Source: an uncultured Candidatus Saccharibacteria bacterium | Lineage (GTDB): Bacteria; Patescibacteriota; Saccharimonadia; Saccharimonadales; AWTP1-31 | NCBI GenBank assembly: GCA_964409615.1 | Contig: CAYPDT010000001.1 | Location: forward strand, 78,629 to 142,628 | Length of the DNA: 64,000 nucleotides | Direction: 5' to 3' | Shown: positions 14,901 to 58,255 of the stretch, in pieces | How the letters are laid out: every line of letters starts with the position of its first letter | Position numbering within the stretch: position 1 is the first letter of the stretch | Notes under the pieces: model-generated | Database searches by the model: none | Told to the model about the DNA's origin: nothing | The model's input: only the letters and a program-made list of their open reading frames with translations | Made by a program: the position numbers and the translations under genes

Positions 14901-16857
14901 TACGACAACTTTGAATATACAGACAAAACTTAAGTCGACCGTCCAAAATGGTAATGAAGTAAAGCTTCGTTCTTTGCTGTATTGGTATAACGATATCGAT
15001 AGGAGTGCTCTTGAGGATGCTCTTGATGACGGCGAAGATGTCTATCAACTTACGGGTAATAATATATCGAACTATGCGTTTACTTACACTACAACACCAG
15101 ACGTTCCTGATGTCCCGAATCCGCAGACACCAACAAATCCTAATCCCCCTGGAACACCTATACGACCAAGACCGACTACGCTTAGCCCCACAGTTAAAGG
15201 TGTGTGTGAGGCGCTAACGGTGCGTACCGTTGGTAGTGATCCATACGCTGTCCCACTGGCGGTAGTCTATACGGTAGAAACGACCGGTGATACTACGGGT
15301 ACAACGTACGTATATGATTTTGGGGATGGAACTACTCAGGAGTCGTCAGATAAGGTAGTCGAACACACCTACGACAAGTGGGGAACATATAGCGCAGCGG
15401 TGCGGCTAAAAACAGGTAACGGCCTAGCAGAGCAAAACCCACTTTGTTCTGTAAGGCTCGGCGTTGGCCAAGTAGTGGCAAAGGAATCAGTAGGTGTATT
15501 TGGAGGGGCATTGGCTTCCGTTCGTACGCACAATTTGCTTACACGAACCATTGCGCTACTGCCATTTGTGTTCACCTCACTTCTGCTTCTAATTGCCATG
15601 ATCTACCTGTGGCTGGCTTATCGAGATAAGAAACAACAAGATAAACTCAAGGAGTTGCTGGAGCGAAATAGAAAGACGCGCCAAAGTATTTCAAACTTTG
15701 TAGCGATTTCGTCGCACTACCTTAATACACCATTGGCTACTATGCAGGGTGCATTAGAAATACTTACCGCCGCCAAGCAAAAAGGAACTCTGACATCGAT
15801 AACGACCTACACGCTAGATGGTATACGAAAACAATTACAAGGACTGAGCAGCTATGTCCAAGGCATAGTCGGGCAGAATGAATCGGTGCTGCAGGCTGAT
15901 ACGAAGCAGGTGGGCTCTGTAGGCTTCGTAGAACTCGCTAAGACCAAGCGTATTTGGATGCCGTTAGCCATAACGGGTCTAATGGTAGCCATTGTTGATA
16001 TCGGTCTTACCTTGTCTGGTGGCTACAAGCTTGCAGAACTTCGACTAGCTAATGCCGTGGCGTTCTTTGCGCTGGCAGGTATTTCAATCATTGTAGCTGG
16101 CATTATGCGTTCTCGCAGTGAAGCGCTGCGGGCTGGAATTGAGCAAGAGCTGGCAAGTGAAAAAACACTACTGAGTCAAAAACAAGCACTTATCCATGAT
16201 ATCGCCGGACAACTTGAAAGCTACCAGCATCTACTCATTCAGGAGAGCGCTACTGTTCAACAACTCCCCGAAGGGCGACTATTCTTTAATGGCCTTAAAG
16301 ACTTTGGAAAACTGACCCAGTCGCTTATTTCCGGTGCGCGTTTTGCTACTTTGTCAGCATCACCTCAGTCGATATTGGCTACTGAGATCATCACCTCAGT
16401 AGTTACGTCACTTGATCCTGTCGCTAAGCAGAAGAATGTGACTATCCAATCTACTATAGAACCGGAAGTAACTATGCAGCTGGAAGGCAGTGAGGCGCGC
16501 TTCTTGCTCACAGCATTCCTGGACAATGCTATTAAGTTTAGTCCAGAAAACGCAAAGGTTGAGCTGCAGGCACGAAGACACGGCAAGCATGATATCTTCA
16601 CCATACGTGACGGAGGTCCTGGTATTGACCAGGCGATAGTCTCGCAGCTTTCACGGCCATTCACGAGAGGAACTGACACTATAACCTACAATAACCAAGG
16701 ACTCGGACTAGGACTCTATAACGCTAAAATACTTATAGAAAAACTTGGTGGATCGCTCGAATTAGCGGCAAGCACTCATGGGGCAGGCACGGTAGCAACT
16801 ATTACGCTTCCACATACAAATAGTCTACCTACGAGCATGGTGTATGCTCCAGCGTAG
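8989..16857 (+). CDS. Giant membrane sensor histidine kinase with a BspA/DUF285-type LRR, PKD and DUF11 ectodomain
   Basis: 2,622 uninterrupted codons. Three N-terminal TMs, then four super-modules of FNQPLxxWDVSxVTxMxxMF repeats with PKD-like DWGDG...HTYAxPGTYTV heads. Then DUF11 (YTLTVRNHGPNNGD), a Pro-rich linker, PKD and a TM. Kinase core: H-box SSHYLNTPL (His codon 15715-15717), two TMs, HATPase_c boxes LDNAIKFS, DGGPGID, GLGLGLYNAK. Confidence 0.85.
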   Translation: MDKKRKFLPRVLKATLQSRRGAIRVATTTVFAASLAVLFNSIDALGSATTRLNRLLLDHSTFVTAIAFIAVLVLAVVLYLHIDYQAHKRPLTTEDKTVDYSFRNHVRVVTIPLMVMKWRQFAVSCLALGLAFVTYTGISVSMSKGTLAAPGSLSVTINQKAGTADPNPSYTSVYTVVFSVPISKTSFTSNDITFSGTAVSPQIQSITESAPFNKTTYEVRVQVAGSGTIVPSIAAESVSAENFDNGTNQASTSTDNSVSYNGTYTPNQFVTKWKTDNPGLTASNQLVIYAQPGYTYNHTINWGDGNIQSGITNSPTHTYASPGTYTVTITGLFPKFTAGPDGQKLLSVEQWGNNPWESLNGGFKDATNFTLVNLDAPNLSNTLDFHELFMNATNFNTSINHWDVSHVVGMAGVFRGATSFNQPLNNWDTSSATNMSAIFDGATSFNQPLNNWDVSHVGSGSLLFRGATSFNQPLNNWDTSDWLDMGSTFLNATSFNQPLNRWNIRNVADANGVLSNTGMSTVNYDITLKGWDTQTLQSGVTMDATGITYCSAESQRANIISTYGWTINDAGKNCTTQQPFITTWKTDNTGDINDRTITIPTLFGGYNYDVDWGDGNTSIGQTGNASHTYAIPGTYTVSISGTFPHLYMQNYGGAEKLLTVEQWGTNSWRSMRSAFLGASNLTIQATDKPDLSNVTDMNYMFYYASSFNQPIEDWDVSGITSMNGLFTGATSFNQPLNTWDVSNVIDMHNLFVGASSFNQPIEDWDVSNAGDMGGMFFNALSFNQSLNTWDVSNAVNMAGMFTGSLFNQPLNSWNVSSVTHMQSMFFYTPFNQPLNSWNVSNVTTMANMLSYTPFNQPLNSWNVANVTNMSGMFDGATAFNRSLGSWHVDNVTNMVGMFGFGSGLSVTNYDATLTGWSNRPLRNNVTFDAGTSQYCNAEAQRQSIITSRSWTINDSGEAPGCVPTDPDDFITTWKTDNPGDSASNQIMIPTISGPYTYDYDVDWGDNTTSANVTTSITHTYASPGTYTVKISGAFPSIQFCDMAEAQKLLTIEQWGTGAWERLDCAFSGATNLTIPATDAPNLSFVTDISYMFRGAVSLNSDLESWDVSHINLMGGMFSYATAFNQPLDGWNVENVTHMGGMFAHASSFNQPLNGWNTDSVVNMGGMFSYATAFNQDIGGWTTDNVTNMGSMFSYATAFNQPLNNWEVGNVTDMGSMFGGATSFDQNIGGWSVSNLTNAVSMFQGASAFNQPLDGWTTPSLTDVWGMFMNATSFNQDINDWDVTHVIATNNLFYGATAFNQPLNNWEVGNVTDMGSMFSGATSFDQSLGDWDVSGAVNLGHMFSLGSGLSTVNYDATLIGWNALALQNDVNFGAGTSRYCTAEAERQNIIDTFDWNIVDQGNACAPQRPLIMKVKTDNPGDSGNNEFEVTYGNDSDTYDFDVDCDNDGTPEFTHQTYSVVCSYPSAGEYEVAVSGAFPHMALNSGNGHDAEKILEVQQWGDIEWHSMEGMFWGASNVQVTATDSPNLQAVTNMSAMFYEATTFNANIGSWDTSNVTNMAMMFYGATAFNQSLNGWSTGNVTNMGEMFKEASSFNANISSWNTGNVTNMFGMFSDGSIFNQDISGWNTGNVTDMSELFFSNSHFNQPIGQWQTGSVTAMRRMFGSAANFNQDIGGWNVGNVTNMSEMFNMATTFNQPLGSWNTGSVTDMSSMFTFATVFSQPINSWNVGNVTNMAMMFNSAPQFNQPLSNWNIDQVTTMQSMFGSFVDYMEFYYGPVADWDQNFKTMVFDELSQIVGHTMNEQNYQTLESGMSATNYDATLIGWSARSLQDDVIFDAGYSRYCTAEVERQSIIDTFGWTINDQGKECQQYLSTDMSLATTLTNSGAIKVGDTLNYTLTVRNHGPNNGDTNHDASVLTLLPATVEFVSAAGTSPVNCTVVLAEDIGIPAFVQHYSGLQVVFCIWTPTPLLTPGDTTTLNIQTKLKSTVQNGNEVKLRSLLYWYNDIDRSALEDALDDGEDVYQLTGNNISNYAFTYTTTPDVPDVPNPQTPTNPNPPGTPIRPRPTTLSPTVKGVCEALTVRTVGSDPYAVPLAVVYTVETTGDTTGTTYVYDFGDGTTQESSDKVVEHTYDKWGTYSAAVRLKTGNGLAEQNPLCSVRLGVGQVVAKESVGVFGGALASVRTHNLLTRTIALLPFVFTSLLLLIAMIYLWLAYRDKKQQDKLKELLERNRKTRQSISNFVAISSHYLNTPLATMQGALEILTAAKQKGTLTSITTYTLDGIRKQLQGLSSYVQGIVGQNESVLQADTKQVGSVGFVELAKTKRIWMPLAITGLMVAIVDIGLTLSGGYKLAELRLANAVAFFALAGISIIVAGIMRSRSEALRAGIEQELASEKTLLSQKQALIHDIAGQLESYQHLLIQESATVQQLPEGRLFFNGLKDFGKLTQSLISGARFATLSASPQSILATEIITSVVTSLDPVAKQKNVTIQSTIEPEVTMQLEGSEARFLLTAFLDNAIKFSPENAKVELQARRHGKHDIFTIRDGGPGIDQAIVSQLSRPFTRGTDTITYNNQGLGLGLYNAKILIEKLGGSLELAASTHGAGTVATITLPHTNSLPTSMVYAPA
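9793..14586 (+). repeat. Four tandem intragenic super-modules (about 9793-10725, 10726-11892, 11893-13213, 13214-14586) built from 66-75-nt LRR units
   Basis: Each module starts with F[IV]TxWKTDNPG and ends with NYDxTLxGW...YC.AE..R..II....W.I.D.G..C. By my count of FN(Q)-x-W cores there are 5+8+10+9 repeats. Nucleotide-identical stretches occur, for example 10312-10347 = 10387-10422 (36 nt) and 12325-12363 = 12475-12513 (39 nt). Confidence 0.85.
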
Positions 16858-34469: not shown

Positions 34470-37400
34470 TCAATCTAAGCCTGTTGTTGGCTTGATGATA
34501 TAGCTGTTCTGGCCGCCCACCTCGCCTTTTAGTCGTGGGAGACTAATCTTCACGCTCGTACCAGCTCCTACTTCACTGTCTATGGATATGGTCCCGCCGC
34601 TCTGTTCAATGACATGCTTGGCTACAAACATGCTCAAACCAAGTCCTTGGTGATCAAACGTCTGGGTGTCCGTACCACGCTGTAGTGGCTCAAATAGTCC
34701 ATTAAGTACTTCGGGGCTGAGGCCTGGACCATTGTCGCTCACCTTAATGGACACCTTATTTCTCTGGCTTTGCGCCCCTACAACTGCCTTGCTTCCTGCA
34801 GGGCTGTACTCTATTGCATTGCCAATAACGGCACTGAGAATGTAGTCGAGCTGGTCAGATTGAAGCGGCACTAACAGACCGTCCGCCACATTAGACTGTA
34901 ACGTACTGCCCTTTTCTTGTGCTAATCTTTGAACCGCAGGTTCAATAGATTGTTTGTAGTAACTTGCTGCGTCCACAGAAGCTGCTGGATTAATCTGCGT
35001 CAGACGTTGGTAACTCGTAAGTTCCTGAGTCAGCTTGTGCAACATGGTTAGTCCGTTGACAAGTAGATGAGCGTCAGGAAGCTGTGCCATACCTTCAGTC
35101 CCTTGACTCAACTGGTCGGTGTGGTGCTGCAAAGCAGGCGCTACTGACTGCAGGAGCTCTTCTTTTTGCTTGGTCACCATCTGAACATTTGCTAATTCTC
35201 GGTCGATGTCAGCATGTAAGACTTTGGATCGCTTATGGTAGACGTAGTAAATTCCAATAAGCAGCGCACTGAAAATGGCTAGGAGTATCAAGTTAACGAG
35301 GCGGGCACCGCGCTTCTCGTAGGCACCTGTCAACAGCAGGGTCAGGTCAATAGCGGCGATAGCCAGGGCAATCCCAAGCAAGCTAGCCCACATCGTACGT
35401 GCCTTAGTGAGCAGTTTTTGGTCAGAATCCGCGAAGCTTGATTGACCACCCTGTGCCAGTGAGGCTTCCACTGAACCTTCGAAACCTTGCACCGTTGAAC
35501 GCAGTGCAATGAGTTTCTGCCCAAAGTTGGCAAGGAATATACTATCCAGTGTATGCTTGCTGGTCATGAGTTCATGGGCACCCTGCAAAACTGCTAACGG
35601 CGTATTAAGGTAGTGGGTGATGATCTCAAGGAATTGCTGAGTCATGCTGGCTCGTTGTTTAGCTTTTGCGATGGCCTGCTGAGCATCTCGTGTAAAGCGG
35701 TACTCTCGCCATGCTTGCAGTACATAAGCAAGCGCAAGCAACAGGAGTAAGGATATGAATAGGTAGTAATCTGCTCCAGGCTTTCGAAGCATGTCACTAC
35801 CTGATGAGCTCTTTTTGGTAGTCGCTCGATCTCTAGTCTGCCGGTACAAATTCTTAGGTGTTGGTATGTTACTTTTGTCTAGATTAGTATTTTGAGAGCT
35901 CGTTGGCGCACGAGGAACGGAGCTGATACTAACTGTTACGGCACAAGTATTTGCGACAGTTGTTGTACCCTGACTGGTTTTAATCCGCGCGGTTGCTTTG
36001 TATGTCCCATTCTTTATATACCTATGATTGGCGGCGGGCGCAGATGACTCAATACTGCTACCGTCTCCAAAATCAAATAAGTAGGACTGAATATTAGTGT
36101 TACTGACTTGTCCCTTTGCCGTGAAGCTAACATCTAGTGGTGCCGTTCGTAGTGCGTTGCTAGTGTCTGCCAGTGCTACGAGGCGAGTGCAGGCATAGCT
36201 GGTCGTTGGCTGAGTAGGCGGAGGTACACTGGGTGTATGATAGGTGGCACGCGCTGCATTATTGATAGGCAATAAGGTCAGATCTTGATGCATGGCATAG
36301 GCGTTTTCAAACTGCTGCAAAGAATCTGATTCGTTTGCATCATCCAAATAATATCCCCCGAAGATAGCACCTTCGGCAGTAGTAATGGTCGCCGTCAGGG
36401 TTATATCGAACTCTATACTTTGATCAACTGCCAGTGGAATTGAATCATCTGCAGCAACACACGCAATCAACCCATTGTTAGGATAAAGATCATTGAAGTA
36501 TGGGTCATCAAAATCAGAGCCAGTTCCGATGTATTGACACCCGACCTGACTCGTATTTGTGTTGGAAACATAGGTGAATCCAGCTGGCATAAAGTAGTAT
36601 AGTCCACCACCAAAGAATGAATTATATGGCCCATAATTTGTAATCGTAATGTGCGACGATACCGTTGCTCCACTCTGTATAGGTGATGGTCCTGGCGCAG
36701 TAATAGCCAGTCCGAAATCAGTCTGAATCACGGTATTAATACGGATGTTATGGTTGGAGCCAAGCGTAAGGCCGCCACCGAGCGGCCATCGAGCGCTATC
36801 TAGCGATAGATCTTGTATATTTTGGTACTTTATACTGCCACCATTAAGAGACAGGAAATCGGGACTTACGTAGGACCAATCTAGATCAGTCGTATTGTCG
36901 CCTGGCGACACTGTGTAGGTGAACGTCAGAACTGCTGTCCCCGATCCTCCGGTATACTGAGCGGTCAGTCCGTCACGCAAGTTCAGTTGGGGCGCGCCAG
37001 TAACATAGACTGGGGTGGCAAACGTTAACTTTAGGGCAATTACCGTACCCACACCATATGTTCCATCGGGGGTTGATGTATCAATGGTTGGCACCTCACA
37101 CTTCTCGCCTGCATCGATGATGACCCAGTTGTAGTCGGCTGTAAGCGTTTGATGAACTGTAATAGCCTGGCAATACGCTACACTAGGTGCATCAAGTGGC
37201 ACATTCGACTGAACGCCATGTGCTAGCCATCCGATAAGAGATTGATCGTAGCTCTGCAAAGAAAAACCTTCTGAGCCGATCAGCATTCCTTCCATAGTTG
37301 TGACATTGCCAACATCCCAGGTATCAAGTGACTGGTCAAAGGCGCTGGCATTCTGGAACATACCTCCCATATTAGTAACATGGCTCACATCCCAGCCGTT

Positions 37401-37520
37401 GAGGGATTGGTTGAAGGATGTAGCTCCACTGAACATTCTATTCATGTTGGTAACATGGCTCACATCCCAGTCGCCCAGCGGCTGGTCGAAGGCGCTGGAA
37501 TTCATGAACATACCATCCAT
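34470..37520 (-). CDS. Sensor histidine kinase paralog, C-terminal fragment (3 LRR units, cap, Ig-like, DUF11, PKD, TM, H-box, TM hairpin, HATPase_c)
   Basis: 1,016 aa. AFDQPLGDWDVSHVTNM repeats. H-box ITHYLNTPLAVLQGAHEL. HATPase_c boxes IGNAIEYS, DNGPGLS, GLGLSMFVAKHV. Same frame as 37536..39044, with only a TAA plus 5 sense codons between them. Confidence 0.8.
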   Translation of the reverse strand: MDGMFMNSSAFDQPLGDWDVSHVTNMNRMFSGATSFNQSLNGWDVSHVTNMGGMFQNASAFDQSLDTWDVGNVTTMEGMLIGSEGFSLQSYDQSLIGWLAHGVQSNVPLDAPSVAYCQAITVHQTLTADYNWVIIDAGEKCEVPTIDTSTPDGTYGVGTVIALKLTFATPVYVTGAPQLNLRDGLTAQYTGGSGTAVLTFTYTVSPGDNTTDLDWSYVSPDFLSLNGGSIKYQNIQDLSLDSARWPLGGGLTLGSNHNIRINTVIQTDFGLAITAPGPSPIQSGATVSSHITITNYGPYNSFFGGGLYYFMPAGFTYVSNTNTSQVGCQYIGTGSDFDDPYFNDLYPNNGLIACVAADDSIPLAVDQSIEFDITLTATITTAEGAIFGGYYLDDANESDSLQQFENAYAMHQDLTLLPINNAARATYHTPSVPPPTQPTTSYACTRLVALADTSNALRTAPLDVSFTAKGQVSNTNIQSYLFDFGDGSSIESSAPAANHRYIKNGTYKATARIKTSQGTTTVANTCAVTVSISSVPRAPTSSQNTNLDKSNIPTPKNLYRQTRDRATTKKSSSGSDMLRKPGADYYLFISLLLLLALAYVLQAWREYRFTRDAQQAIAKAKQRASMTQQFLEIITHYLNTPLAVLQGAHELMTSKHTLDSIFLANFGQKLIALRSTVQGFEGSVEASLAQGGQSSFADSDQKLLTKARTMWASLLGIALAIAAIDLTLLLTGAYEKRGARLVNLILLAIFSALLIGIYYVYHKRSKVLHADIDRELANVQMVTKQKEELLQSVAPALQHHTDQLSQGTEGMAQLPDAHLLVNGLTMLHKLTQELTSYQRLTQINPAASVDAASYYKQSIEPAVQRLAQEKGSTLQSNVADGLLVPLQSDQLDYILSAVIGNAIEYSPAGSKAVVGAQSQRNKVSIKVSDNGPGLSPEVLNGLFEPLQRGTDTQTFDHQGLGLSMFVAKHVIEQSGGTISIDSEVGAGTSVKISLPRLKGEVGGQNSYIIKPTTGLD

Positions 37521-38025
37521 GCCATAGTATGAATATTAGAGTCCACCGGTACCAACAACACTTGAAGTGTCCCAACTATTGAGGGGCTGGTTGAAGGATG
37601 TAGCTCCACTGAACATTAGAGCCATGTTTGTAACACTGCCTGTATTCCAACTATTGAGGGGCTGGTTGAAGGACAAAGCTCCGGAGAACATACTCTCCAT
37701 TGAGAGTACTGCATCAGTGTCCCAACTATTGAGGGGCTGGTTGAAGGATGTAGCTCCACTGAACATTAGAGCCATGTTTGTAACACTGCCTGTATTCCAA
37801 CTATTGAGGGGTTGATTAAATGTTGGGGTGTTCAAAAACATTCTTGACATATTTGTAACACTGCCTGTATTCCAACTATTGAGGGGCTGGTTGAAGGATG
37901 TAGCCCCCCAGAACATCCCTCTCATGTCGGTAACGTTGCTGGCGTCCCAGTCGCCCAGCGGATAGTCAAAGGCGCTGGCATTCTGGAACATACCTCCCAT
38001 ATTAGTAACATGGCTCACATCCCAG
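37335..38025 (-). repeat. 61-nt perfect direct repeat (37335-37395 = 37965-38025) flanking the in-frame stop
   Basis: GTCAAAGGCGCTGGCATTCTGGAACATACCTCCCATATTAGTAACATGGCTCACATCCCAG occurs twice, 630 nt apart, one copy on each side of the TAA at 37536-37538. Confidence 0.9.
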
Positions 38026-39044
38026 GAGTTTAGAGGCTGATTAAAACTCGATGCCCCAGAGAACATACCATCCATAGCAGTTACACTACTCACATCCCAA
38101 CTGTCGAGGGGTTGATTAAAAGCAGAAGCATCCTGAAACATGTTGTTCGTATAGGTAACATGGCTCACATCCCAGGAGTTTAGAGGCTGATTCACTTTAC
38201 TGGCTCCATGAAACATATTGTCCATGTAAGTAACATTGGACAAATCGGGTGTATCTGTTGCGGTGATCGTAAGGTTGGAAGCATTTTCGAACGAAGACGC
38301 CATGCTCGCCCACTGATTCGTTCCCCATTGTTCTACGGTCAGTAGTTCCGGAGCATTTGCCGGACTCAGAAGCATGCGAGGGAATGTCCCAGTTATCTTA
38401 ACGGTATACACTCCTGTGGATGCATACGTATGATATGCAGCATCAGTAACACCCATATCCACTGCGCTATCCCCCCAATCAATATCGTAGTTGTAACCGC
38501 CCAAACTATAGGAGGGTATGGAAAGTGCCTTGCTAGCATTTTGAATATTCCAAGTAGTCACAAACTCATCAGGGGCATAAGCGTAGGTTCGACTTAATTG
38601 CACGGCCGCCGCAGTTATCAATAAGGTGAGCAGGACTCCAGTATACCCCGACCATAGCAATAATCTTTTCTTGTAGTACAGTGCTCTAGGAATAAACACC
38701 GCCTTGGCATGATGCAGCAACCCGTATCGAACCCTCGGGTCTTCCACTATGAGTGGTCTTTGGTGCCGCTTGTAGTCGAGCTGGTAGCAAATACTCAGCA
38801 CTATTACTAACAGGAGAGCTATGCATCCTAGAACAGCAAGTACAGCTAGGTAATCAATCTTGTTACCGGTAAACAGTAGTCTCCAGATGTCCCGACTTAA
38901 CGAAGAGGTGGAGCGGAGTGACAATGATATGAAAATCATGAGCAACAATGACCCGGCTACAATCATGAAATCTCTGCTATGATTGGTCAGACGGGTTCTG
39001 TGACTATAAAATCGGGTACTAATTCTGTTTCTGGTCTTACGCAT
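37536..39044 (-). CDS. Sensor histidine kinase paralog, N-terminal fragment (3 TMs, PKD-like head, 9 DUF285 LRR units), ending at an in-frame TAA
   Basis: 502 aa. N-terminus is homologous to the giant kinase (CYQLDYKRHQRPLIVEDPRVRY versus YLHIDYQAHKRPLTTEDKTVDY). FVTTWN...DIDWGDS...HTYASTGVYTVKITG. Stop TAA is at 37536-37538 (minus strand). Confidence 0.8.
   Translation of the reverse strand: MRKTRNRISTRFYSHRTRLTNHSRDFMIVAGSLLLMIFISLSLRSTSSLSRDIWRLLFTGNKIDYLAVLAVLGCIALLLVIVLSICYQLDYKRHQRPLIVEDPRVRYGLLHHAKAVFIPRALYYKKRLLLWSGYTGVLLTLLITAAAVQLSRTYAYAPDEFVTTWNIQNASKALSIPSYSLGGYNYDIDWGDSAVDMGVTDAAYHTYASTGVYTVKITGTFPRMLLSPANAPELLTVEQWGTNQWASMASSFENASNLTITATDTPDLSNVTYMDNMFHGASKVNQPLNSWDVSHVTYTNNMFQDASAFNQPLDSWDVSSVTAMDGMFSGASSFNQPLNSWDVSHVTNMGGMFQNASAFDYPLGDWDASNVTDMRGMFWGATSFNQPLNSWNTGSVTNMSRMFLNTPTFNQPLNSWNTGSVTNMALMFSGATSFNQPLNSWDTDAVLSMESMFSGALSFNQPLNSWNTGSVTNMALMFSGATSFNQPLNSWDTSSVVGTGGL
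37566..37811 (-). repeat. 96-nt perfect tandem duplication (37566-37661 = 37716-37811; 150-nt period, two LRR units)
   Basis: Base-by-base comparison of the two stretches shows them identical. First mismatches are at 37565/37715 and 37662/37812. Confidence 0.9.
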
Positions 39045-39167
39045 AATGCATCTAGCTAAGGGGATTACCTTTACATAATGTTTCCGTTTAAGCTTTATTA
39101 CTTTAAGTATAGCGGTCTTGCTCGCTACAAACTAGCGCTGAGTACTTGCGTGCCATACCAATAAAAT

Positions 39168-39785
39168 CTATAGCAGAGCAGCAATACTCTTAAGCATTCC
39201 TATATCAATCTCAACCTCTGGGTCAAGTTTACTAATAGTAATGGTGACTACAGTACTGTCCTTTAGATAGTGGAGTTGATTTGAGTCTTCGGTATAGTGC
39301 GCCGCTCCAGCAAGACCAGCTATTGCCTTGCCGTTGTCCTGGATCATACGGGTATAGATCTTTTGGGCCTCAGCCTGGTCATCTATAGTACGCGCAGTAA
39401 TACTGACCGCCCGTAATTTCTGAGTATTCGACTGAGTTACTGCATATGAGCACCCCGCTGTGGTTCCCTCACTCGTTTTGACATCTGGAAATGGAATCAT
39501 TTTTTCTTGAATTGGCTCGCCGATTATGCCCTGGATCTGATTCCTAGTGATTTTTTTACAGATTGTGCTGCTAGAATTTTCGGGGAGCTTCATAAAGCTA
39601 CCAGCATCTATAGGCTTGGATTGGGGACTCCTGAAGACCACCTTATCTCCATCATCACTAGAGGACTTGCGTACCTGCCAGAAAACAATAGAGAGTGCAA
39701 TAACAAGAAGAGCCACAGCTACACGCATGACTAGCGATCTGCGACTAGTCTTGTAGGTACGTCGTAGTGGCCGCTCCATTTTCAT
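39168..39785 (-). CDS. Hypothetical membrane-anchored protein
   Basis: ORF 39168..39854. Start set at MKMERPL (39785), which removes the overlap with the upstream gene. Single TM VAVALLVIALSIVFW. Confidence 0.45.
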   Translation of the reverse strand: MKMERPLRRTYKTSRRSLVMRVAVALLVIALSIVFWQVRKSSSDDGDKVVFRSPQSKPIDAGSFMKLPENSSSTICKKITRNQIQGIIGEPIQEKMIPFPDVKTSEGTTAGCSYAVTQSNTQKLRAVSITARTIDDQAEAQKIYTRMIQDNGKAIAGLAGAAHYTEDSNQLHYLKDSTVVTITISKLDPEVEIDIGMLKSIAALL

Positions 39786-49437: not shown

Positions 49438-51075
49438 CTAAGTGCGGGGTAAATGGTGCGCCAGGTGCTCCATGGAGTACTCATGGCGCAGTAGTGGCTT
49501 AATGTCATCTAGGGTGACATCTATTTTGACTCCAGGGTTGAGCGTGCCGTACGGGTCAAAAATAAGTTTGAGCTTTTGGAATACGCCGTACATAGCATCA
49601 CCGTAGAGCTTGCTCAAGTAAGGTGCTCGCAAGCGGCCGTCACCATGCTCACCGCTCGTGCTACCACCAAGGCTAATTACCATATTGTAGTATTCGTCGA
49701 TAATCTTGAAGACTTTTTGGCGATCGCCAATTTGACTGAGATCCAAGAAAGGTTGCATGTGTAAATTAGCATTTCCAGCATGTCCCCACAGGGCAACTTG
49801 TAAATTATAGCGATTGAAGAGCTCGTAAGCCTGCGTAATGTACTCTTGGAACTTCTCTACCGGTACGATACCGTCTTCTATAATTGGTATCGCTTTTGTG
49901 TTGCCCTCAGAGTGTGCAGCAACAGCAGCAGCACTATGACGAATTTTCCAGAGTCGCTCTTTTTCAATCTCTTCAGTTTCTAGGCGATACTGGATTTGTG
50001 ACTTAGTTAGAATTTTAGTAACTTTTTTGGCCATGCGTTTTTGCAAACGGATGTTTGCATCGTCAAACTCAATCAAGACAATCATCTTATGGAATGGCTT
50101 CTCTACAATTCCCTTCAGCTGATTAGGGCTGTGTACATCAATAAATTTTAGAAGATTTTCGTCAACCATTTCCATGGCGCTTGGGCTGTCTGATAATGAC
50201 CGAATTTCGGCCAAGACCTGTTCGGCAACTGATAGGTCATCGAAGAAAGCTGCAATAAGAGTTGTTTCTGGATTGTAGGCCACTGTCTTGATAGTCGCTT
50301 CGGTAACGATACCTAATGTTCCCTGAGAACCAACAATAAGCGGAGTTAGGTCAAAGGAGCCGTCTTTGCGTTTTACGTCGGCGAGCGCATAGCCAGCCGA
50401 ATTTTTACTGACGTGGAGTTTTGCATCGTTAATGGTTGCTTTCTTTTCCTCGATGAGCGCATCTACTGCTCGGTACAGCTCGCCCTCGAAGTTGGTCAAG
50501 CCCATCTTTTTGCTGAGTTCACGCTTGCTGAGTCGACGAGTTTCGATGACTTCACCATTAGCCAAAACAACTCGGAGAGTTTTTACGTAATCACGTGTAA
50601 CTCCATACTTCATGCTCTTTTCACCCGCAGCATTGTTGGCAATTGCACCACCAACCGTGCTGTACTCAATAGATGAAGGGAATGGCGGCAAGAAACGACC
50701 GTGGGTGTGCAACGTCTGCTGCAACTTACCATATGTTAAGCCTGGCTCTATAACCACATCACCAGTCTTACCATCGAGCTCTAAAATTCGGTTCATGTGT
50801 GCTGGGAAGACCATAAGCACGCCACTACCAACAGCGGCACCCGCTTGGTCGGTGCCAAGCCCGCGAGCAGTTATTGGGATTACCCGACCGCGTTCGGCAA
50901 GCTGCCACGTAAATCGTGCCGTTTTACGCACATCACTTTCGTTACGCGGATACACTACCAGCGAAGGTGTGACTGCGAAGACACTACCATCTGTTGAAAA
51001 ATACTTCCGAATCGCTGGAGTTGCGGTAACTTCTCCATGTAAATGTTCTTGTAAATACTGCGCGACTTTGCTCAT
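49438..51075 (-). CDS. FAD-linked oxidase (GlcD / D-lactate dehydrogenase-like)
   Basis: 545 aa. FAD_binding_4 pattern VVYPRNESDVRKTARF...ITARGLGTDQAGAAVG...LMVF and the C-terminal FAD-oxidase domain GGSTSGEHGDGRLR. Confidence 0.85.
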   Translation of the reverse strand: MSKVAQYLQEHLHGEVTATPAIRKYFSTDGSVFAVTPSLVVYPRNESDVRKTARFTWQLAERGRVIPITARGLGTDQAGAAVGSGVLMVFPAHMNRILELDGKTGDVVIEPGLTYGKLQQTLHTHGRFLPPFPSSIEYSTVGGAIANNAAGEKSMKYGVTRDYVKTLRVVLANGEVIETRRLSKRELSKKMGLTNFEGELYRAVDALIEEKKATINDAKLHVSKNSAGYALADVKRKDGSFDLTPLIVGSQGTLGIVTEATIKTVAYNPETTLIAAFFDDLSVAEQVLAEIRSLSDSPSAMEMVDENLLKFIDVHSPNQLKGIVEKPFHKMIVLIEFDDANIRLQKRMAKKVTKILTKSQIQYRLETEEIEKERLWKIRHSAAAVAAHSEGNTKAIPIIEDGIVPVEKFQEYITQAYELFNRYNLQVALWGHAGNANLHMQPFLDLSQIGDRQKVFKIIDEYYNMVISLGGSTSGEHGDGRLRAPYLSKLYGDAMYGVFQKLKLIFDPYGTLNPGVKIDVTLDDIKPLLRHEYSMEHLAHHLPRT

Positions 51076-51173
51076 GGCCCCTCTTATGTATAGGAAAGCT
51101 TAACTGTTTTTCTTTCATTCATAATAGCACAAACTAGTGCTCTGTCGGTATTCAATTCCAGATAAAATAATAC

Positions 51174-51659
51174 CTATTTTACGGAGTCAGCAGATAGTGT
51201 TGCACCGTGTTTAACAAGTGCGCCGGTAATGGCATTGCGTATGCTAAGGACATTTTCCATACCGAACAAACGATAGCCGGTATAAAACCACATGTACTGA
51301 AAACTGTACGGCTGAACCTCAATGAGGGTCTCTGCTGTTCGAATCTGGATGCGAGCCCAGTTGATCGCACCACCCTGGCGAACAGACGCCTGCTTAAGAT
51401 TAATCACTTCTTGCCTGCCCTTGTTTACAAAATCTATGGTTGCCGTACTGCCCTGCAATGTTAGTACTGCCTTGCTATTGATGGCCAGCTTGCCCGAAGA
51501 TTGCACCGAGGCATAGCAATTAATTACTGGGTTGGGCTGGTTGCAGGCTTCGGTAATTGCCTGCACCTTCTTTTTATCGCGAACGTATTGATATACCGAA
51601 CTCACAACGGCTAGAACTATCAATATTGGTGGAATATAACTTGTTATGTTTGTGCTCAT
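51174..51659 (-). CDS. Hypothetical N-terminally anchored protein (last gene of a 4-gene unknown operon)
   Basis: 161 aa. TM IPPILIVLAVVSSVY. Start overlaps the upstream stop by 4 nt. Confidence 0.45.
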   Translation of the reverse strand: MSTNITSYIPPILIVLAVVSSVYQYVRDKKKVQAITEACNQPNPVINCYASVQSSGKLAINSKAVLTLQGSTATIDFVNKGRQEVINLKQASVRQGGAINWARIQIRTAETLIEVQPYSFQYMWFYTGYRLFGMENVLSIRNAITGALVKHGATLSADSVK

Positions 51660-53569
51660 ACCGCTATTCTAGGTGACTCCGCTTGTTTATCCAAATCATC
51701 TGGTTTTGCCATCCAATATTTAGCACGAGGAAATAATTCTAGTTGATTTGCCACAAATTGCTGCAAAAATTCTAAGCCTTTTCTGGTTTCACCAGAAAGA
51801 ATTTGGGTCTTATAAGAATTTGACCGGACAAATAAAAGAACGGCTGGTGGATTAAGATGTCTATCCCACTCAACAACTGCAAAATAAGATAGTGCTGGCC
51901 CGAACTTCACAATCGTTTGCTCACTATTGTCATCAGTATTTATATGAACATCTAGTAACCCTGAATCGGTGATAACCTCTACCCACTGGGTATCTTTCCT
52001 AACTGGTATTTGATACGTTGCACTATCAAAACCAAATTGTTCAGATTCGTCGTTTATCTGCAGGTCTTTCTCGCAAATTAAGCCGACACTAAAATTTCGA
52101 ATATCGCTTGCCTGCAGATTCTCAACCAGCTCTGCCAGCCCAACCGACTGAGTTGTGAGCACCAAGCCGCCTTTTTCTGTATGGTCTGCAATAGCATATT
52201 TTTTAGAATCTGTGATAGATTTGAATTTCATACGAGCAACACTTTGCAGCACACGTTCTTTATTACCAGCCACTACTTTCTCTACGGCATCGCTCAAACT
52301 ATCAGATGAACCGAGCGAATAACACAAAACTTTTCTTACGAACATCTGCTTTACTTGGTGTAGCTCTTTGGCATATTCCTCAAGCAACAAAACTCGAGTT
52401 GCTACATGCAGATAACCCCCCAGTAAACTCTGAAAATTAAAGTCGTTATTCTCGTCAAACATGTAGCCCTCGAGGTCAATATCATTGGGGTCTGTAACAT
52501 CGAGCAAATCCTGGATAGCGAGTGGTAGTGAGTTGTCTAGTAGACTTTCGAGTGAGCTATCCAGTAACTCTTGCACCCGATTCGCATTACACTCCAGCCA
52601 GTAGTCGAATAGCTCAAGCTCATTATCAATATCGAATGGAGAATGGTCTTCGTACATAGCGGTTACTAGGTTGGCAAAAATATAACTTTCCATCTGGGGT
52701 ATTGTTTCGGTACGATTGATATTAACTGGGAGCTGGCTCATAGCATATGTCACAATATCTTGCTCGGTTATCGGCGTTTGATCATTTTTCGATTGCTTAA
52801 ATTGCATACGATAGGCACTCAGGAATGTCTGTGTTAATTCCAAGCCATCCTCCGTGCCACCCAAAGCAAGCGCAGTCTGGCTTATCGCAGAGTACACTTC
52901 TCTGAAGTCTTGGTAGACATCTCGCACAGTTATTGGTTCATCGCCGATATCTAGGGGTTCGCCATGAAAGCTGTCGGTGTCTATCAAACTACCGAGCGCA
53001 GTTATGTTTTGCTCATTCGGATATTTACATGCCAGTCCGAGAGCGTGAATTTTAGCAAGATTACTACCTGCGAACTGAATAGTTTGCTCAGTAAGGAATC
53101 TCCGAACATCTGCAGGATTGGTAGAGTCGAATGGTAGTTGCCCAGGTTTTATAAAGTGACGATTATATTTGGCAAATAACTCTTCCCTCAATTCAGGTTG
53201 AGCCAAATCAATCATTCGCATACTTGTATCCATAGCTCGTGCACTCACCATAAACGTTTCTCTGGTCAATTGTCCCTGCATTTCGGCTAGCTTCTCGGCA
53301 GTTCGCTTTTCTTCGGGGAGACGATTCCAGTCCGCCAACACAAGGCTGTCTTTATACGCTTGTAATGTCATTTTTTGGTGTGCATCTGTTTGCTCATCAA
53401 GGAGTGGTTTAGCAAAATACGTTGGCTCACTCAGCCCTAGTAAGTATTCAGTTCCGACTCCTGCAGCTCTTAACAGTGCCGAAACCCGTGCAACCCGCCC
53501 AAGCACTGCCAACTCCTGCAGCCCAAATGCAGTGTACCGTTCGCTCGACCCCGCAGATTGGGTGAGCAC
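51656..53569 (-). CDS. Hypothetical 637-aa protein
   Basis: Long uninterrupted ORF with coding-like composition. No motif I can recognise. Confidence 0.5.
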   Translation of the reverse strand: MLTQSAGSSERYTAFGLQELAVLGRVARVSALLRAAGVGTEYLLGLSEPTYFAKPLLDEQTDAHQKMTLQAYKDSLVLADWNRLPEEKRTAEKLAEMQGQLTRETFMVSARAMDTSMRMIDLAQPELREELFAKYNRHFIKPGQLPFDSTNPADVRRFLTEQTIQFAGSNLAKIHALGLACKYPNEQNITALGSLIDTDSFHGEPLDIGDEPITVRDVYQDFREVYSAISQTALALGGTEDGLELTQTFLSAYRMQFKQSKNDQTPITEQDIVTYAMSQLPVNINRTETIPQMESYIFANLVTAMYEDHSPFDIDNELELFDYWLECNANRVQELLDSSLESLLDNSLPLAIQDLLDVTDPNDIDLEGYMFDENNDFNFQSLLGGYLHVATRVLLLEEYAKELHQVKQMFVRKVLCYSLGSSDSLSDAVEKVVAGNKERVLQSVARMKFKSITDSKKYAIADHTEKGGLVLTTQSVGLAELVENLQASDIRNFSVGLICEKDLQINDESEQFGFDSATYQIPVRKDTQWVEVITDSGLLDVHINTDDNSEQTIVKFGPALSYFAVVEWDRHLNPPAVLLFVRSNSYKTQILSGETRKGLEFLQQFVANQLELFPRAKYWMAKPDDLDKQAESPRIAV

Positions 53570-53602
53570 AGCTTTTGTAACGTTGTTGCCCTTTAAGTTA
53601 AC

Positions 53603-53905
53603 CTATGTAAATGGGTTTCCAAATTCATCTGTCCAGTATTCTGGTAAAGATTCATCGCGTACTTCAAAAGACCGCACATGTATTGGCGTAAGACGCTCCA
53701 TCCGCTGACTATCCTGGGCCTCTGAGCCAAATTCGTCATCATTAAATGGCAAAGAATTTTCTGCACCTTCTGTAAATAAAAACGGACACCGTGTCAACAA
53801 GTCCTTAATGTATCGCCGACCCGGCTCAAAGCCTGCAATCTCGTGTGCAACATTGAAGTCACCAATATCGGTGACTTCGTAACAAGGAACGGTGCGTTGA
53901 ATCAT
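53603..53905 (-). CDS. Hypothetical protein
   Basis: 100-aa ORF in the same operon; no motif. Confidence 0.4.
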   Translation of the reverse strand: MIQRTVPCYEVTDIGDFNVAHEIAGFEPGRRYIKDLLTRCPFLFTEGAENSLPFNDDEFGSEAQDSQRMERLTPIHVRSFEVRDESLPEYWTDEFGNPFT

Positions 53906-53916
53906 GCAGTATCTAA

Positions 53917-54291
53917 CTATGGCTTAGCGGCAGTGGTCGTGGATTTTTTGGTTGGAGTCGGGCCCTGAGGTGGTGTAATTGAACTATTCATATCCATAAG
54001 TGCACTGTACGTTACCACCTTGCCTGCAAATTGCTGAAATTGACTTTCGTCTAATGGCGGCACCACTTCTAGGGTACCTGCTTCCATAAAGCGCCGATGC
54101 AACACAGACGCTACCTCGTAGCGCATGCCACGACTATCGCCCTGGCTGGCCACAATTGCCATGCCCTCTGCCTCTAGATCTGCGAGCAGTGTCAGTAAAC
54201 CTTCTCGTGGAGCTGGTGTGTGCAAAGCACTAATCTGCTCATCGAGCATTAAGAATGTATCTGCCTGTGGTAAATTTTCTAATCCTGCCAT
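53917..54291 (-). CDS. Hypothetical protein
   Basis: 124-aa ORF, first gene of the operon, 60 nt downstream of the tRNA-Leu(CAG) 3' end. Confidence 0.4.
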   Translation of the reverse strand: MAGLENLPQADTFLMLDEQISALHTPAPREGLLTLLADLEAEGMAIVASQGDSRGMRYEVASVLHRRFMEAGTLEVVPPLDESQFQQFAGKVVTYSALMDMNSSITPPQGPTPTKKSTTTAAKP

Positions 54292-54351
54292 AATAACTCC
54301 TTGCTTTTGTATAATTAAATACTACAAACCACTGAAAAGCAAAAGTTAGTT

Positions 54352-54438
54352 TGGTGCGGATGAAAGGACTTGAACCTTCACAGGATTGCTCCCACTACGA
54401 CCTGAACGTAGCGCGTCTACCAATTCCGCCACATCCGC
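54352..54438 (-). tRNA. tRNA-Leu (anticodon CAG), long variable arm, CCA encoded
   Basis: Reverse complement GCGGAUGUGGCGGAAUUGGUAGACGCGCUACGUUCAGGUCGUAGUGGGAGCAAUCCUGUGAAGGUUCAAGUCCUUUCAUCCGCACCA. Anticodon loop UUCAGGU. Confidence 0.9.
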
Positions 54439-54541
54439 ACATTGTTGCCTCGCGCCGCGCGTCTACGATTGCCATAAGGCCGCCACAGTCGCACAGCTAG
54501 AACTCTGTAATTCTAATCTATTGCGGGCTGCTTCTCAAGTG

Positions 54542-56329
54542 TTATGGGTTGGCCGGACGGTTTGCCACACGCACCATCCACTTTTCAACATTGTTAAAGC
54601 GATCAGCACCACTGTTCATACTGGTTGGTGAAAAGCCATAGAAACTATCCCGCGCTACATATAAGTATCGTGGCTGGTACAGGGCTAATGCTGGTGCATC
54701 TTGCTGCCATGCTTCCAAGAACGGCTTGTACTTTACAGCACGCACAAAGTCTTCGCTGCGAGTTCGACCACCTTCTAGAGCTTTATCGGCAACAGGTGAT
54801 TTATATTCAGAAAAGTTCAGACGGCTAGCCGAGCGAGAGTCTGCCTGGCTGCTATGCCAGAATGCAAACACATCAGGGTCGGCACCAAGAGCAATGCCGT
54901 ATAGCAAGGCATCGTAGGTGTGCCCTACTAGGGCAGACTGTAGTTCCTGGTCTTCCAGCTTAATAACTTTCACGTCTACGCCTAGCTCTCGCCACTGGTC
55001 TTTGAGATTTTTAGAAACAGTGTCGTAGACTGGATTTTTTTGAGTAGTGAGCATAAAGGTCAAAGGCTGTTTACTCTTAAAACGAATACCGTTAGCACCA
55101 ACTTTCCAGCCAGCAGCATCGAGCGCTTGCTTGGCAGCATCGATATTACCAGTCTGCTGTTTTATGGTCGGGTCGTAACCAATCTGACCTTTAAGCAACG
55201 GGCCGTAAGCCGGTAATACTGGCCGTCCGAGGTTGACCAAAATATCACCTACTTTTGTGCCCGATACAAGCGCGCGGCGCACCGCAGGGTCGGCGAAAAT
55301 ATCAGATGATGACTTAAAGAATACCATCACTTCATTAGTCAAGGGTACGTTATAAGCCTTGGTGGCAACATCGTCTTTTAGCTCATCGGGCATTGTACTT
55401 AAACCTGCTGCAGCGTTGACTTCTCGGCTAACCAAAGCATCTTTGAGCCGCTCTTCACTGGCAAAGCTTCGCATGATAAATTTGTCGATTTTTGGTGCTC
55501 CACCGACGTAATTTTCGTTGGGTACTAACGCTATACGCTGCTCACGCGCATCGGGGTCGGCCGATACAACCTCTACCGCTTCCCACTTGAAGGGGCCTGA
55601 GCCTACTGGGTTGCGGGTGTTAAACGGCGAAGATCGCAATTGTGATGGCGGGGTATCAGCCAGTAAATGCTTTGGCACAATGCCGTTGGTCATAGAGTAC
55701 GGGAAGGCACTCAAAATACTGGGCAACGTAAAGACAATCGTTTTTTTGTTGGGAGTCTCAACCTTAATGCCCTGCCAACTGCTGGCTAGCGGTGATTTGG
55801 CATCGGGATTCTGAATCATCTTGTAGGTGTATAGTACATCCGCAGATGTCAGCTCGGTACCATCGTGCCACTTTAAGTTATCTTTTAGGGTGACAGTATA
55901 GATTGTGCCCGATTCGTCCAATTGCCAGTTCTTGGCTAAATCACCAACTAATTTGTTGTTTTGGTCTGCTTTGAATAATCCAGAAAATACCAAACGCTCT
56001 ACACTACCATCCACGCTACCGGTAGCGTACAGAGGACTGACGTTAGTAAACGTACCGACAATACCTTCGGTAAAGATACCGCCAGGAGTTGGCGTGGCCG
56101 ATAGGTAATGATTACCCAGGGTTCGTGTTTGATACAATACTCCGCCAATCAACAATACAAACAAAACCACCCAGGCTGCAACGAAGCGTCGTACTTTGGT
56201 AAGTCGACTTAATCGAGTAAAGAAATGTTTCTCCAGCTGGTCTTCAGTTTGAGTACCAAACTCCTCGACCTGCTGTTTACTTCGTCTAAATTGACGCCGC
56301 CATCGTAACTTGGTGGTGCGATCAATCAT
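54542..56329 (-). CDS. ABC transporter substrate-binding protein, family 5 (peptide/nickel, OppA/DppA-like), N-terminally TM-anchored
   Basis: 595 aa. TM VAAWVVLFVLLIGGVLY, then an SBP_bac_5-like sequence (LVGDLAKNWQLDESGTIYTVTLKDNLKWHDGTELTSADV...). Confidence 0.85.
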   Translation of the reverse strand: MIDRTTKLRWRRQFRRSKQQVEEFGTQTEDQLEKHFFTRLSRLTKVRRFVAAWVVLFVLLIGGVLYQTRTLGNHYLSATPTPGGIFTEGIVGTFTNVSPLYATGSVDGSVERLVFSGLFKADQNNKLVGDLAKNWQLDESGTIYTVTLKDNLKWHDGTELTSADVLYTYKMIQNPDAKSPLASSWQGIKVETPNKKTIVFTLPSILSAFPYSMTNGIVPKHLLADTPPSQLRSSPFNTRNPVGSGPFKWEAVEVVSADPDAREQRIALVPNENYVGGAPKIDKFIMRSFASEERLKDALVSREVNAAAGLSTMPDELKDDVATKAYNVPLTNEVMVFFKSSSDIFADPAVRRALVSGTKVGDILVNLGRPVLPAYGPLLKGQIGYDPTIKQQTGNIDAAKQALDAAGWKVGANGIRFKSKQPLTFMLTTQKNPVYDTVSKNLKDQWRELGVDVKVIKLEDQELQSALVGHTYDALLYGIALGADPDVFAFWHSSQADSRSASRLNFSEYKSPVADKALEGGRTRSEDFVRAVKYKPFLEAWQQDAPALALYQPRYLYVARDSFYGFSPTSMNSGADRFNNVEKWMVRVANRPANP

Positions 56330-56349
56330 AAAACTCTCCCACTAAAGTT

Positions 56350-56562
56350 TTACGCTAAAATACCCAGGATCAACGACACTCCAAACACGAGCACCATGAC
56401 AATGGTAATCTGGTGAATTGTCTTGTCTGAACCACGTCGGACACTGTTGACTTCTCCACCACCACCAAGGCCTGCGCCCAAAGATGCGCCACGAGTTTGG
56501 ACCAAGATAAGAATTGTAGAGAGTACCGCAGAGACGATAGTTATGTAGTTAAATATGTTCAT
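56350..56562 (-). CDS. secG: Preprotein translocase subunit SecG
   Basis: 70 aa. Two TMs separated by a Gly-rich loop (LVQTRGASLGAGLGGGGE), the typical SecG layout. Confidence 0.75.
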   Translation of the reverse strand: MNIFNYITIVSAVLSTILILVQTRGASLGAGLGGGGEVNSVRRGSDKTIHQITIVMVLVFGVSLILGILA

Positions 56563-56921
56563 CGTTCTTCTAGTATAGTTGTTACAAGATAATTTACCAA
56601 GCCGATAACCATACCGGCAAGCATGGCTGCACCAAAGTTAGTGACGTGCAGTGGCGCATAAACCTTGCTAACTAACATGACCATTAGCCCATTAATTACC
56701 AGCATGAACAAGCCAAGGCTGAACAAGATTGCTGGAAGAGACAAAATAATGACAATTGGTTTAATGACGGTATTTACCAAAGCGAGTATTAAACCAGAGA
56801 TAATTATCACACCCAAACGCTGGTCGTAGTTGATGCGACCGCCGAGCAGGCCGGCTGCAATCCACAGACCAAGGCCACTCACAAACCAGCGAATTAGAAA
56901 CCGCGAGAAGGGCTTTTTCAT
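56559..56921 (-). CDS. Phage-holin-family-4 / YvlD-like 4-TM membrane protein
   Basis: 120 aa. WFVSGLGLWIAAGLL...ALVNTVIKPIVIILSLPAILFSLGLFMLVINGLMV resembles the PF04020 family. Confidence 0.6.
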   Translation of the reverse strand: MKKPFSRFLIRWFVSGLGLWIAAGLLGGRINYDQRLGVIIISGLILALVNTVIKPIVIILSLPAILFSLGLFMLVINGLMVMLVSKVYAPLHVTNFGAAMLAGMVIGLVNYLVTTILEER

Positions 56922-58207: not shown

Positions 58208-58255
58208 ACAAGAGATTAGTATACCACTAAGCTAATTATGAGCAGTAAGGATATG

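Follow-up and report, generated by a model that had tools for sequence, protein, structure and literature searches.

A premature stop codon in the repeat ectodomain of a Saccharibacteria sensor kinase: probably a recent pseudogene

Is a large sensor kinase gene of an uncultured Candidatus Saccharibacteria bacterium, interrupted by one in-frame stop codon, a dead gene, a pair of genes working apart, a recombinational switch or simply an error of assembly? The locus occupies positions 34470-39044, on the minus strand, of a 64,000-nt stretch of contig CAYPDT010000001.1 (assembly GCA_964409615.1, contig positions 78,629 to 142,628), which is referred to below as the window and whose coordinates are used throughout. 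The initial annotation regarded the two open reading frames (ORFs) found here as a split one-module paralog of a giant kinase encoded in the same window, and considered a recent pseudogene, a functional split and a repeat-mediated on/off variant as possible outcomes. The first of these is favoured here: the sequence comparisons suggest, with a probability of about 0.75, that the locus is a recent and real nonsense pseudogene (TAY to TAA) of a sensor kinase with a one-module PARCEL ectodomain, and that the perfect repeats found nearby are unconnected to the stop.

The stop codon and the loop that contains it

The 5' fragment in the ORF list (37536..39044, minus strand) consists of 502 codons and TAA, and encodes a positively charged N-terminus, three transmembrane (TM) helices, an N-cap, PARCEL units 1-9 and unit 10 up to its eleventh codon; exactly this protein is present in an NCBI record. 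The 3' fragment (34470..37520, minus strand), counted from the first ATG past the stop, has 1016 open codons and comprises the remaining part of unit 10, units 11 and 12, a C-cap, an Ig-like/DUF11-like stalk, a PKD domain, TM4, an H-box, the TM5/6 hairpin and a HATPase_c domain. Both ORFs lie in one frame, and their joined reading of 1525 codons contains a sole internal stop, the TAA at 37536-37538 (codon 503), which is separated from ATG 37520 by five sense codons (YSYYG), in full agreement with the coordinates reported initially. No other lesion was found in the 1525 codons, and the catalytic motifs (H, N, G1 and G2) have all been preserved. Codon reassignment or suppression was considered and rejected: TAA is the commonest stop of the window, closing 20 of its 39 ORFs, and the four tRNAs found in the window are ordinary, with no suppressor tRNA among them. 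In Escherichia coli, UAA followed by U is an efficient terminator.

An intact ortholog (P0002, 1682 aa, at locus L001) was found by a protein search with 55% identity and 100% coverage. Its locus is syntenic, with genes for UvrC, an M24 peptidase, SBP_bac_5 and an FAD oxidase located upstream in the same order as at 59752..49438 in the window. One of its 18 units carries a 10-residue insert matching that of the window (SSVTGESGVYYQYYGMDSMF against SSVVGTGGL*YSYYGMDGMF), and the order of units ahead of the insert (X, the 'MESMF' unit, X') is also the same. The codons of this region can be aligned without gaps, GTT TAT TAT CAG TAC TAC GGC ATG GAT of the ortholog facing CTC TAA TAT TCA TAC TAT GGC ATG GAT of the window. 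In this alignment the TAA faces TAT (Tyr), and the nonsense change amounts to one third-position substitution, at window base 37536.

In the window the insert is a Tyr-rich loop of 10 codons in PARCEL unit 10 (37524..37553, minus strand; GTGGL*YSYY, with boundaries ambiguous by 1-2 codons), which makes this unit 35 residues long instead of the usual 25. Because the ortholog has the same insert with TAT in place of TAA, the loop is judged to be ancestral and inherited, and the stop to be a point change within it. The earlier description of the stop as lying inside an atypical insert of about 11 codons was right as to the place; the insert is 10 codons long and ancestral. The insert (residues 449-460) is predicted with lower confidence (pLDDT ~63) in an AlphaFold model made for the ortholog module (pLDDT 79, pTM 0.70), where confident repeats flank it. 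Small insertions at this unit position also occur in other PARCEL proteins, and the insert itself was absent from 80 unrelated PARCEL loci (35-52% identity) among the matches listed in a metagenome scan that used the generic PARCEL peptide FNQPLNSW as the query.

DNA identity between the ortholog and the window is only 67-71%, so synonymous sites are saturated in this comparison. A second homolog (1697 aa, at locus L002 in a Saccharibacteria metagenome-assembled genome) is also intact and keeps the anchor and the kinase module; its identity to the window protein reaches 78% in the best segment, which belongs to the kinase part, and its ectodomain is quite different, NHL-like. The relatives carry the labels Candidatus Saccharibacteria or Saccharimonadales. 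A protein search with the stalk only returned just partial Ig-like matches and no further orthologs, and missed the self match as well.

The same stop is present in a second haplotype. A 2275-nt contig of JGI metagenome 3300010345 (L088, carrying P0138) spans window positions 39472..37123, and one of its frames reads MRKTRN...SSVVGTGGL*YSYYGMDGMF..., with the same TAA as in the window. Outside the middle of the array the two sequences show 2 mismatches in 1435 nt upstream and none in the 551 nt across and past the stop, which take in the insert unit and the stop itself; the flanks of the two haplotypes differ by ~0.1%. The array of this contig has 11 units against 12 in the window and a different composition: W1, W2, a variant of W3, a new unit that matches W6 in 62/75 positions, another W3-like unit and W4 as units 1-6, followed by W5, a single copy of W7/9, W10 (with the stop), W11 and W12 as units 7-11. 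It contains a perfect repeat of its own (62 nt at 150-nt spacing) and retains both copies of the 61-nt repeat described below, and no near-identical source for its specific segment was found elsewhere in the window. Since L088 was assembled separately and shares the TAA despite its different array, the stop does not seem to be a quirk of one assembly, and an error in a single assembly is an unlikely source of it.

In the proposed course of events, TAT or TAC of a conserved Tyr would have become TAA by one third-position change in the ancestral Tyr-rich loop of unit 10, and translation would now end at codon 503, within the ectodomain. On the 5' side a repeat stump would result, anchored in the membrane but missing its C-cap, and the 1016 codons on the 3' side would have neither initiation signals nor an export route of their own, so that signalling through this kinase would be lost. 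That the mutation is real and recent is suggested by its being common to two near-identical haplotypes and the sole lesion, with the catalytic motifs intact. Together with the gapless pairing of TAA and TAT, these observations support the pseudogene among the outcomes initially considered.

Several points weigh against this reading. Comparison was possible with one ortholog having a PARCEL ectodomain (n=1). Contig L088 possibly comes from the same sample as the source genome, or from a related one; the base call is reproducible, which does not imply fixation in the population. The ATG located 15 nt past the stop permits termination-reinitiation, and some C-terminal fragment may arise in this way. 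The 1016-codon frame is still open, as would be expected if the event were very recent or if constraint had persisted. Finally, one family member (P0226, at L087) is a genuine short gene consisting of the anchor and the ectodomain, and the N-terminal fragment could likewise keep some surface function.

The two halves as separate products

Some of these points also favour the first alternative to a pseudogene, in which the 5' half would be an anchored PARCEL surface protein (an adhesin or a decoy), and the 3' half a kinase produced by termination-reinitiation and detached from its anchor. Besides the ATG five codons past the stop, the open 3' frame with its intact catalytic motifs and the occurrence of kinase-less proteins of the P0226 type in the family, this alternative can draw on the 5' ORF, which retains its start codon and anchor, and on the stop being common to two haplotypes with differing arrays. 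We nevertheless consider it improbable. No Shine-Dalgarno sequence was found in the 25 nt ahead of ATG 37520, and no promoter-like or terminator-like site was found near the stop on the minus strand. The gene caller of the source record places the start of the 3' protein (P0001, 963 aa) at an internal Met, where the codons of NMGGMF read GGAGGT ATG; this start looks like a caller artefact.

The 3' product would open with ~580 ectodomain residues (repeats, C-cap and PKD domain), with no signal or anchor ahead of them. Since long N-terminal domains, as is generally known for Sec/YidC export, stay unexported without a signal or an anchor, this portion would be expected to remain in the cytoplasm. 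The 5' fragment could still be made, having kept the start codon and three TM helices, but its product would end in the middle of unit 10 and lack the C-cap. The intactness of the array is uninformative on constraint, because rearrangements in the register of the units stay in frame regardless of selection.

The composition of the family also argues against a functional split. When 1.84 billion representatives were searched with a profile built on the N-terminal anchor, 40 of them had the anchor module at the start; 26 of the 40 were at least 1000 aa long and had the full kinase module in the same chain, with ectodomains of PARCEL or non-PARCEL types. Judging by these sequences, a single polypeptide is the rule in the family: the ortholog, the L002 homolog and the 26 representatives are all single chains. 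The same split was not found in any relative; the other splits in the family are different lesions in different places.

One of them affects the giant kinase itself. In an ENA metagenome contig (ERZ650287 NODE_373, L083), whose DNA is 96-98.6% identical to the window, the corresponding gene (1232-9135) is split into 371 and 2252 aa by the loss of one T at window position 10025 (TT to T); at a coverage of ~5x, the frameshift may be real or may have arisen in assembly. In two members with NHL/fn3 ectodomains the break falls in the part of the gene that encodes the ectodomain: an apparent 1-nt frameshift in a G6 run divides one (L084, 4567-11362) into 504 and 1725 aa, and another in an A7 run divides the second (L085, 385-8238) into 481 and 2102 aa. 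Some of these splits may be low-coverage assembly errors. A further protein, P0162 (1128 aa, without a kinase module; L089 6001-10359, and L090), is followed after 19 nt by an IS1595 transposase gene and then by Fic/VbhA. An insertion sequence may have disrupted it, but it was not counted as a proven case; a HATPase_c ORF located 5 kb further on fails the family kinase-module profile. It appears that the very long genes of this family are often found disrupted, by differing lesions, which fits decay and not a conserved split.

The repeat array around the stop

The PARCEL array (37317..38246, minus strand) consists of 12 units, all 75 nt long except unit 10, which has 105 nt (37467-37571), as delimited by an identity matrix and by families of direct repeats at 75-nt spacing. 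The repeats had initially been taken for LRRs. This agrees with the NCBI name 'BspA family LRR', but the units belong to PARCEL/DUF285 (PF03382, TIGR02167) and are not classical LRRs: PF03382 matches with 315 bits (E=1.9e-95) in the 5' fragment and 102 bits in the 3' fragment (cut-off 25), and TIGR02167 with 131 bits (E=6e-39, cut-off 30). The AlphaFold model of the ortholog module is predicted to have roughly one short strand per 25 residues; a Foldseek search of the PDB with this model gave nothing at E<=0.001, the top weak matches being LRR proteins (E=0.65). The plus strand is also open across the array, with ORFs at 37300-37527 (75 aa) and 37567-37815 (82 aa) that encode a repeating SQLLRGWLKDVAPLNI-like peptide. 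Opposite-strand ORFs have been noted for many PARCEL coding sequences, in a study that treats PARCEL ORFs as genes without a known function, most of them lipoproteins (Roske et al. 2010, PMC2996958).

Two pairs of perfect repeats occur in the array, all on the minus strand. The copies of the 96-nt repeat are located at 37716..37811, covering unit 7 together with the closing 15 nt of unit 6 and the opening 6 nt of unit 8, and at 37566..37661, covering unit 9 together with the closing 15 nt of unit 8 and the opening 6 nt of unit 10. Those of the 61-nt repeat lie at 37965..38025 (head of unit 4) and 37335..37395 (head of unit 12). Identity is 96/96 and 61/61 nt, and neither repeat can be extended by one base. 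The stop does lie between the two 61-nt copies, as initially reported; these are spaced 630 nt apart, in frame, and further in-frame direct repeats of 30 nt are found around the stop at 180-nt and at 330-nt spacing. Since the thirteen 75-nt units compared are otherwise 37-88% identical, and the longest exact intragenic repeat is only 39 nt both in the giant paralog and in the ortholog, the perfect repeats are beyond chance. Identity over 75 nt is 88% between units 4 and 12 and complete (75/75) between units 7 and 9; unit 8, which intervenes between the latter two, is 65% identical to them and 53% identical to units 6 and 10.

The 96-nt repeat had been described as a perfect tandem duplication near the stop. 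The repeat is real, but it is not tandem: its copies lie 150 nt apart, with 54 nt of a divergent unit between them. A fresh 150-nt tandem duplication was rejected, just 96 of the 150 nt being identical and the other 54 nt belonging to the divergent unit, and the simplest reading of this pattern is a gene-conversion patch. The giant paralog was rejected as a conversion donor, the longest match shared with it being 20 nt; hence the homogenisation would be intragenic. We suggest that ongoing gene conversion or unequal recombination among the 75-nt units of this gene yields both the 96-nt and the 61-nt perfect repeats. Such recombination would proceed in both haplotypes independently of the stop, which it could at most delete irreversibly. 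The repeat arrays of this family evidently change faster than substitutions accumulate in the DNA around them. Because the insert is ancestral and conversion patches are also present in the other haplotype, the proximity of stop, insert and perfect repeats is best regarded as coincidental.

The second alternative is that the repeats would allow the stop to be removed in frame, so that the population would contain OFF alleles with the stop and ON alleles from which it has been deleted. The in-frame direct repeats that surround the stop (61 nt at 630 nt; 30 nt at 180 or 330 nt) speak for it, as does the fast recombination suggested by arrays that differ between haplotypes whose flanks are nearly identical. 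So does the third PARCEL module of the giant kinase, in which the window (11916-13042) and L083 (4137-5320) share ~50% protein identity between flanks that are 96-98.6% identical in DNA; this difference looks like a cassette-type replacement by recombination. The earlier statement that recombination between the 61-nt copies would delete 630 nt in frame is correct as to the spacing, but such a deletion would be irreversible and hence not a switch. Moreover, since the units are 75 nt long and the insert 30 nt, any event in the register of the units stays in frame by construction, and a 630-nt in-frame deletion has no special meaning. In the only other haplotype found in the population, neither the stop nor either of the 61-nt copies has been lost. 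The insert occurs just once, which leaves no donor for repair, and the stop arose by point substitution in unique sequence, not by a change in a hypermutable tract. A repeat-mediated variant is thus very improbable.

The remaining alternative, that the TAA arose in sequencing, consensus calling or assembly while the cell has an intact gene, might be suspected from the adjoining highly repetitive sequence, which is prone to mapping and polishing faults, and from the possible common sample of the two assemblies, but it is just as hard to maintain, because the stop is a substitution and not a homopolymer indel, lies in the unique insert and not in a repeated unit, and is the same base in a separately assembled contig with a different array and 551 nt of perfect identity around it.

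A recent pseudogene is therefore the reading that we retain for this locus. The lesion is of a well-known kind, and the gene would be an ordinary pseudogene. The practical value of this result is that the two ORFs should be annotated neither as a surface protein and an orphan kinase nor as a switch. On a more speculative note, the giant surface sensor kinases of Saccharibacteria might be inactivated or remodelled time and again within a population, perhaps because of pressure from host bacteria or phages by which the ectodomain is recognised. This nonsense mutation, the 1-nt deletion in L083, the frameshifts in the G6 and A7 runs, the module replacement and the reshuffling of the array would all fit such a scenario, which we nonetheless regard as doubtful; if it were true, the truncated N-terminal stump would be kept as an anchored PARCEL surface protein.

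Architecture, neighbourhood and known systems

The joined reading has the architecture of the giant kinase with a single 12-repeat module, as initially proposed: anchor, caps, 12 units, PKD domain and kinase are all present. The following features are all on the minus strand. A Kyte-Doolittle scan places TM1 at 38907..38978 (residues 23-46), and 8 of the 26 N-terminal residues are K or R. TM2 (38769..38867, residues 60-92) is followed by a loop with the conserved motif DY.RH.RPL..ED, and TM3 (38601..38663, residues 128-148) is the final anchor/export segment ahead of the ectodomain. The segment consisting of TM2 and 'DY.RH.RPL..ED' (profile positions 70-123 of the anchor alignment, window ~38670-38840) also matches the C-termini of many unrelated proteins of ~450-800 aa, as well as many stand-alone proteins of ~80 aa, and is seemingly a widespread small membrane module.

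The PARCEL module opens with the N-cap domain (38247..38564; FVTTW...YDIDWGD...HTYA..G.YTV...EQWG), recognised by alignment to the modules of the giant kinase and to other PARCEL proteins, and ends with the C-cap (37098..37316; DVGNVTTM...SLIGW...YC...DYNWVIIDAGEKC). Past the stalk, the PKD domain (35931..36155) matches PF18911 with E=4e-11 and PKD_4 with 43 bits. The chain re-enters the membrane past the ectodomain with TM4 (35706..35777, residues 1090-1113), followed by an H-box/DHp-like segment (35565..35633; FLEIITHYLNTPLAVLQGAHELM) that scores 19.4 bits with HisKA (PF00512), below the Pfam cut-off of 26.9; the His of its ITHYLNTPL motif is conserved in the ortholog, the L002 homolog and the giant paralog. 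Between the H-box and the ATPase domain lies the TM5/TM6 hairpin (35232..35396, residues 1217-1271), which is kept in the giant paralog and in the 26 family representatives matching the full kinase-module profile. The HATPase_c domain (34533..34859) matches PF02518 with 70.8 bits (E=1.6e-19, cut-off 26.4), and its N-box (34800-34832, GNAIEYSP), G1 (34716-34742, DNGPG) and G2 (34626-34646, GLGLS) are intact. The best partial NCBIfam matches of the kinase part are PhoR, PnpS and WalK. The hydropathy scan thus gives six hydrophobic segments, three ahead of the ectodomain, one after it and two in the hairpin, with the stop falling within the ectodomain; the N-terminus and the TM2-TM3 loop are positively charged. 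The predicted layout is an N-terminus inside the cell, three TM helices, an ectodomain of ~940 residues, TM4, the H-box, the hairpin and the ATPase domain.

The giant paralog (8989..16857, plus strand, 2622 aa), which lies outside the lesion and served for comparison, follows the same plan but with four PARCEL modules. The kinase modules of the two proteins are only 32% identical, so the two are considered to be old paralogs. A tblastn search with the receiver that follows the L084 member, a stand-alone gene (138 aa) located directly 3' of that kinase, revealed no response regulator near the kinase in the window, L001, L002, L083 or L085; the partner may be encoded elsewhere in the genome.

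The surroundings of the kinase gene differ from those of the ortholog. Between the FAD oxidase gene and the kinase start, which abut in L001, the window has ~10 kb of extra genes (39168-49428), encoding a CotH/lamin-tail (LTD) protein of 785 aa, a DUF11 surface protein of 981 aa with a C-terminal anchor, and PLD-like and HD-domain proteins. By this insertion the kinase may have been cut off from what was once its upstream operon. On its downstream side the broken kinase is directly adjoined by a mobile-element-like block (22950-34213) with genes for two large serine recombinases (22950-24698, plus strand; 30836-32533, minus strand), for tRNA-Phe, tRNA-Val and tRNA-Leu and for a WhiB-domain protein, as well as KorA-like and Replic_Relax-like genes.

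Incomplete genes are found elsewhere in the window. At 7446-8465 (plus strand) only the C-terminal half of the NAD-dependent DNA ligase LigA is encoded (profile positions 350-664 of 664), with no adenylation domain upstream, and it is either a gene remnant or a second truncated copy. An amidase ORF at 45718-46668 (plus strand), in which roughly the initial 80 positions of the profile are missing, probably represents a truncated remnant; the ORF that overlaps it from ahead (45234-45785) shows no relation to it and weakly matches pectate lyase at the N-terminus of the latter. A beta-helix protein has 519 aa in the window (17867-19426) against 870 aa in L083 (10145-12757), and since the DNA similarity between the window and L083 ends at 19253, a rearrangement breakpoint lies inside this gene. 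TATAAT-like hexamers were observed 6-10 nt ahead of several starts without Shine-Dalgarno sequences (7019, 58207, 59752 and 48656, for example), which suggests that leaderless transcripts are frequent in this genome. The kinase gene is situated in a plastic, decaying region.

The genes of this family are plausible candidates for contact sensing in host-attached organisms, and knowing which copies are dead matters for functional work. The Saccharibacteria sensor-kinase family to which they belong, with interchangeable ectodomains (PARCEL, NHL, fn3), a three-helix anchor and a hairpin kinase module, is apparently undescribed. Its kinase-module layout, found at 34470-35800 and 15574-16857 in the window and in L001 and L002, consists of a TM helix, the H-box, a two-helix hairpin, ~130 residues and HATPase_c. 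The literature searched yielded no description of this combination of anchor, interchangeable ectodomain and hairpin kinase, no paper linking DUF285 to a histidine kinase, and nothing relevant on DUF285 or LRR histidine kinases in Saccharibacteria.

In its kinase part the joined protein is a divergent two-component sensor kinase. Compared with classical sensor histidine kinases (PhoR, WalK, EnvZ), it is alike in its HATPase_c domain, which scores above the cut-off and has the N, G1 and G2 motifs, and in its H-box with a conserved His. It is unlike them in the sub-cut-off HisKA match, in the membrane hairpin and ~130 further residues between the H-box and the ATPase domain, in having three N-terminal helices instead of one, and in the size of the ectodomain, which is 900-2000 residues in this family. 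With PARCEL/DUF285 surface proteins it shares amphipathic units of 25 residues, tandem arrays of variable unit number, membrane targeting, antisense openness and evidence of intragenic shuffling, whereas here the array forms the ectodomain of a histidine kinase, between a three-helix anchor and a C-terminal kinase module.

Size and antigenic variation by intragenic recombination is known for Mycoplasma Vlp/Vsa, the group B Streptococcus alpha C protein and streptococcal M proteins, in which the gene stays open and variation is the function. The perfect repeat patches and the varying number and composition of units (12 and 11 here) are similar, but in the present case the variation surrounds a fixed premature stop and no variant restores the frame. 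The closest likeness is to nonsense and frameshift pseudogenes of reduced genomes, where a single disabling mutation is likewise seen against an intact ortholog in a sequence that is otherwise undegraded, in a neighbourhood rich in remnants and mobile elements and with independent frameshifts in the family; the kinase gene departs from them only in that the array of the broken gene still varies between haplotypes.

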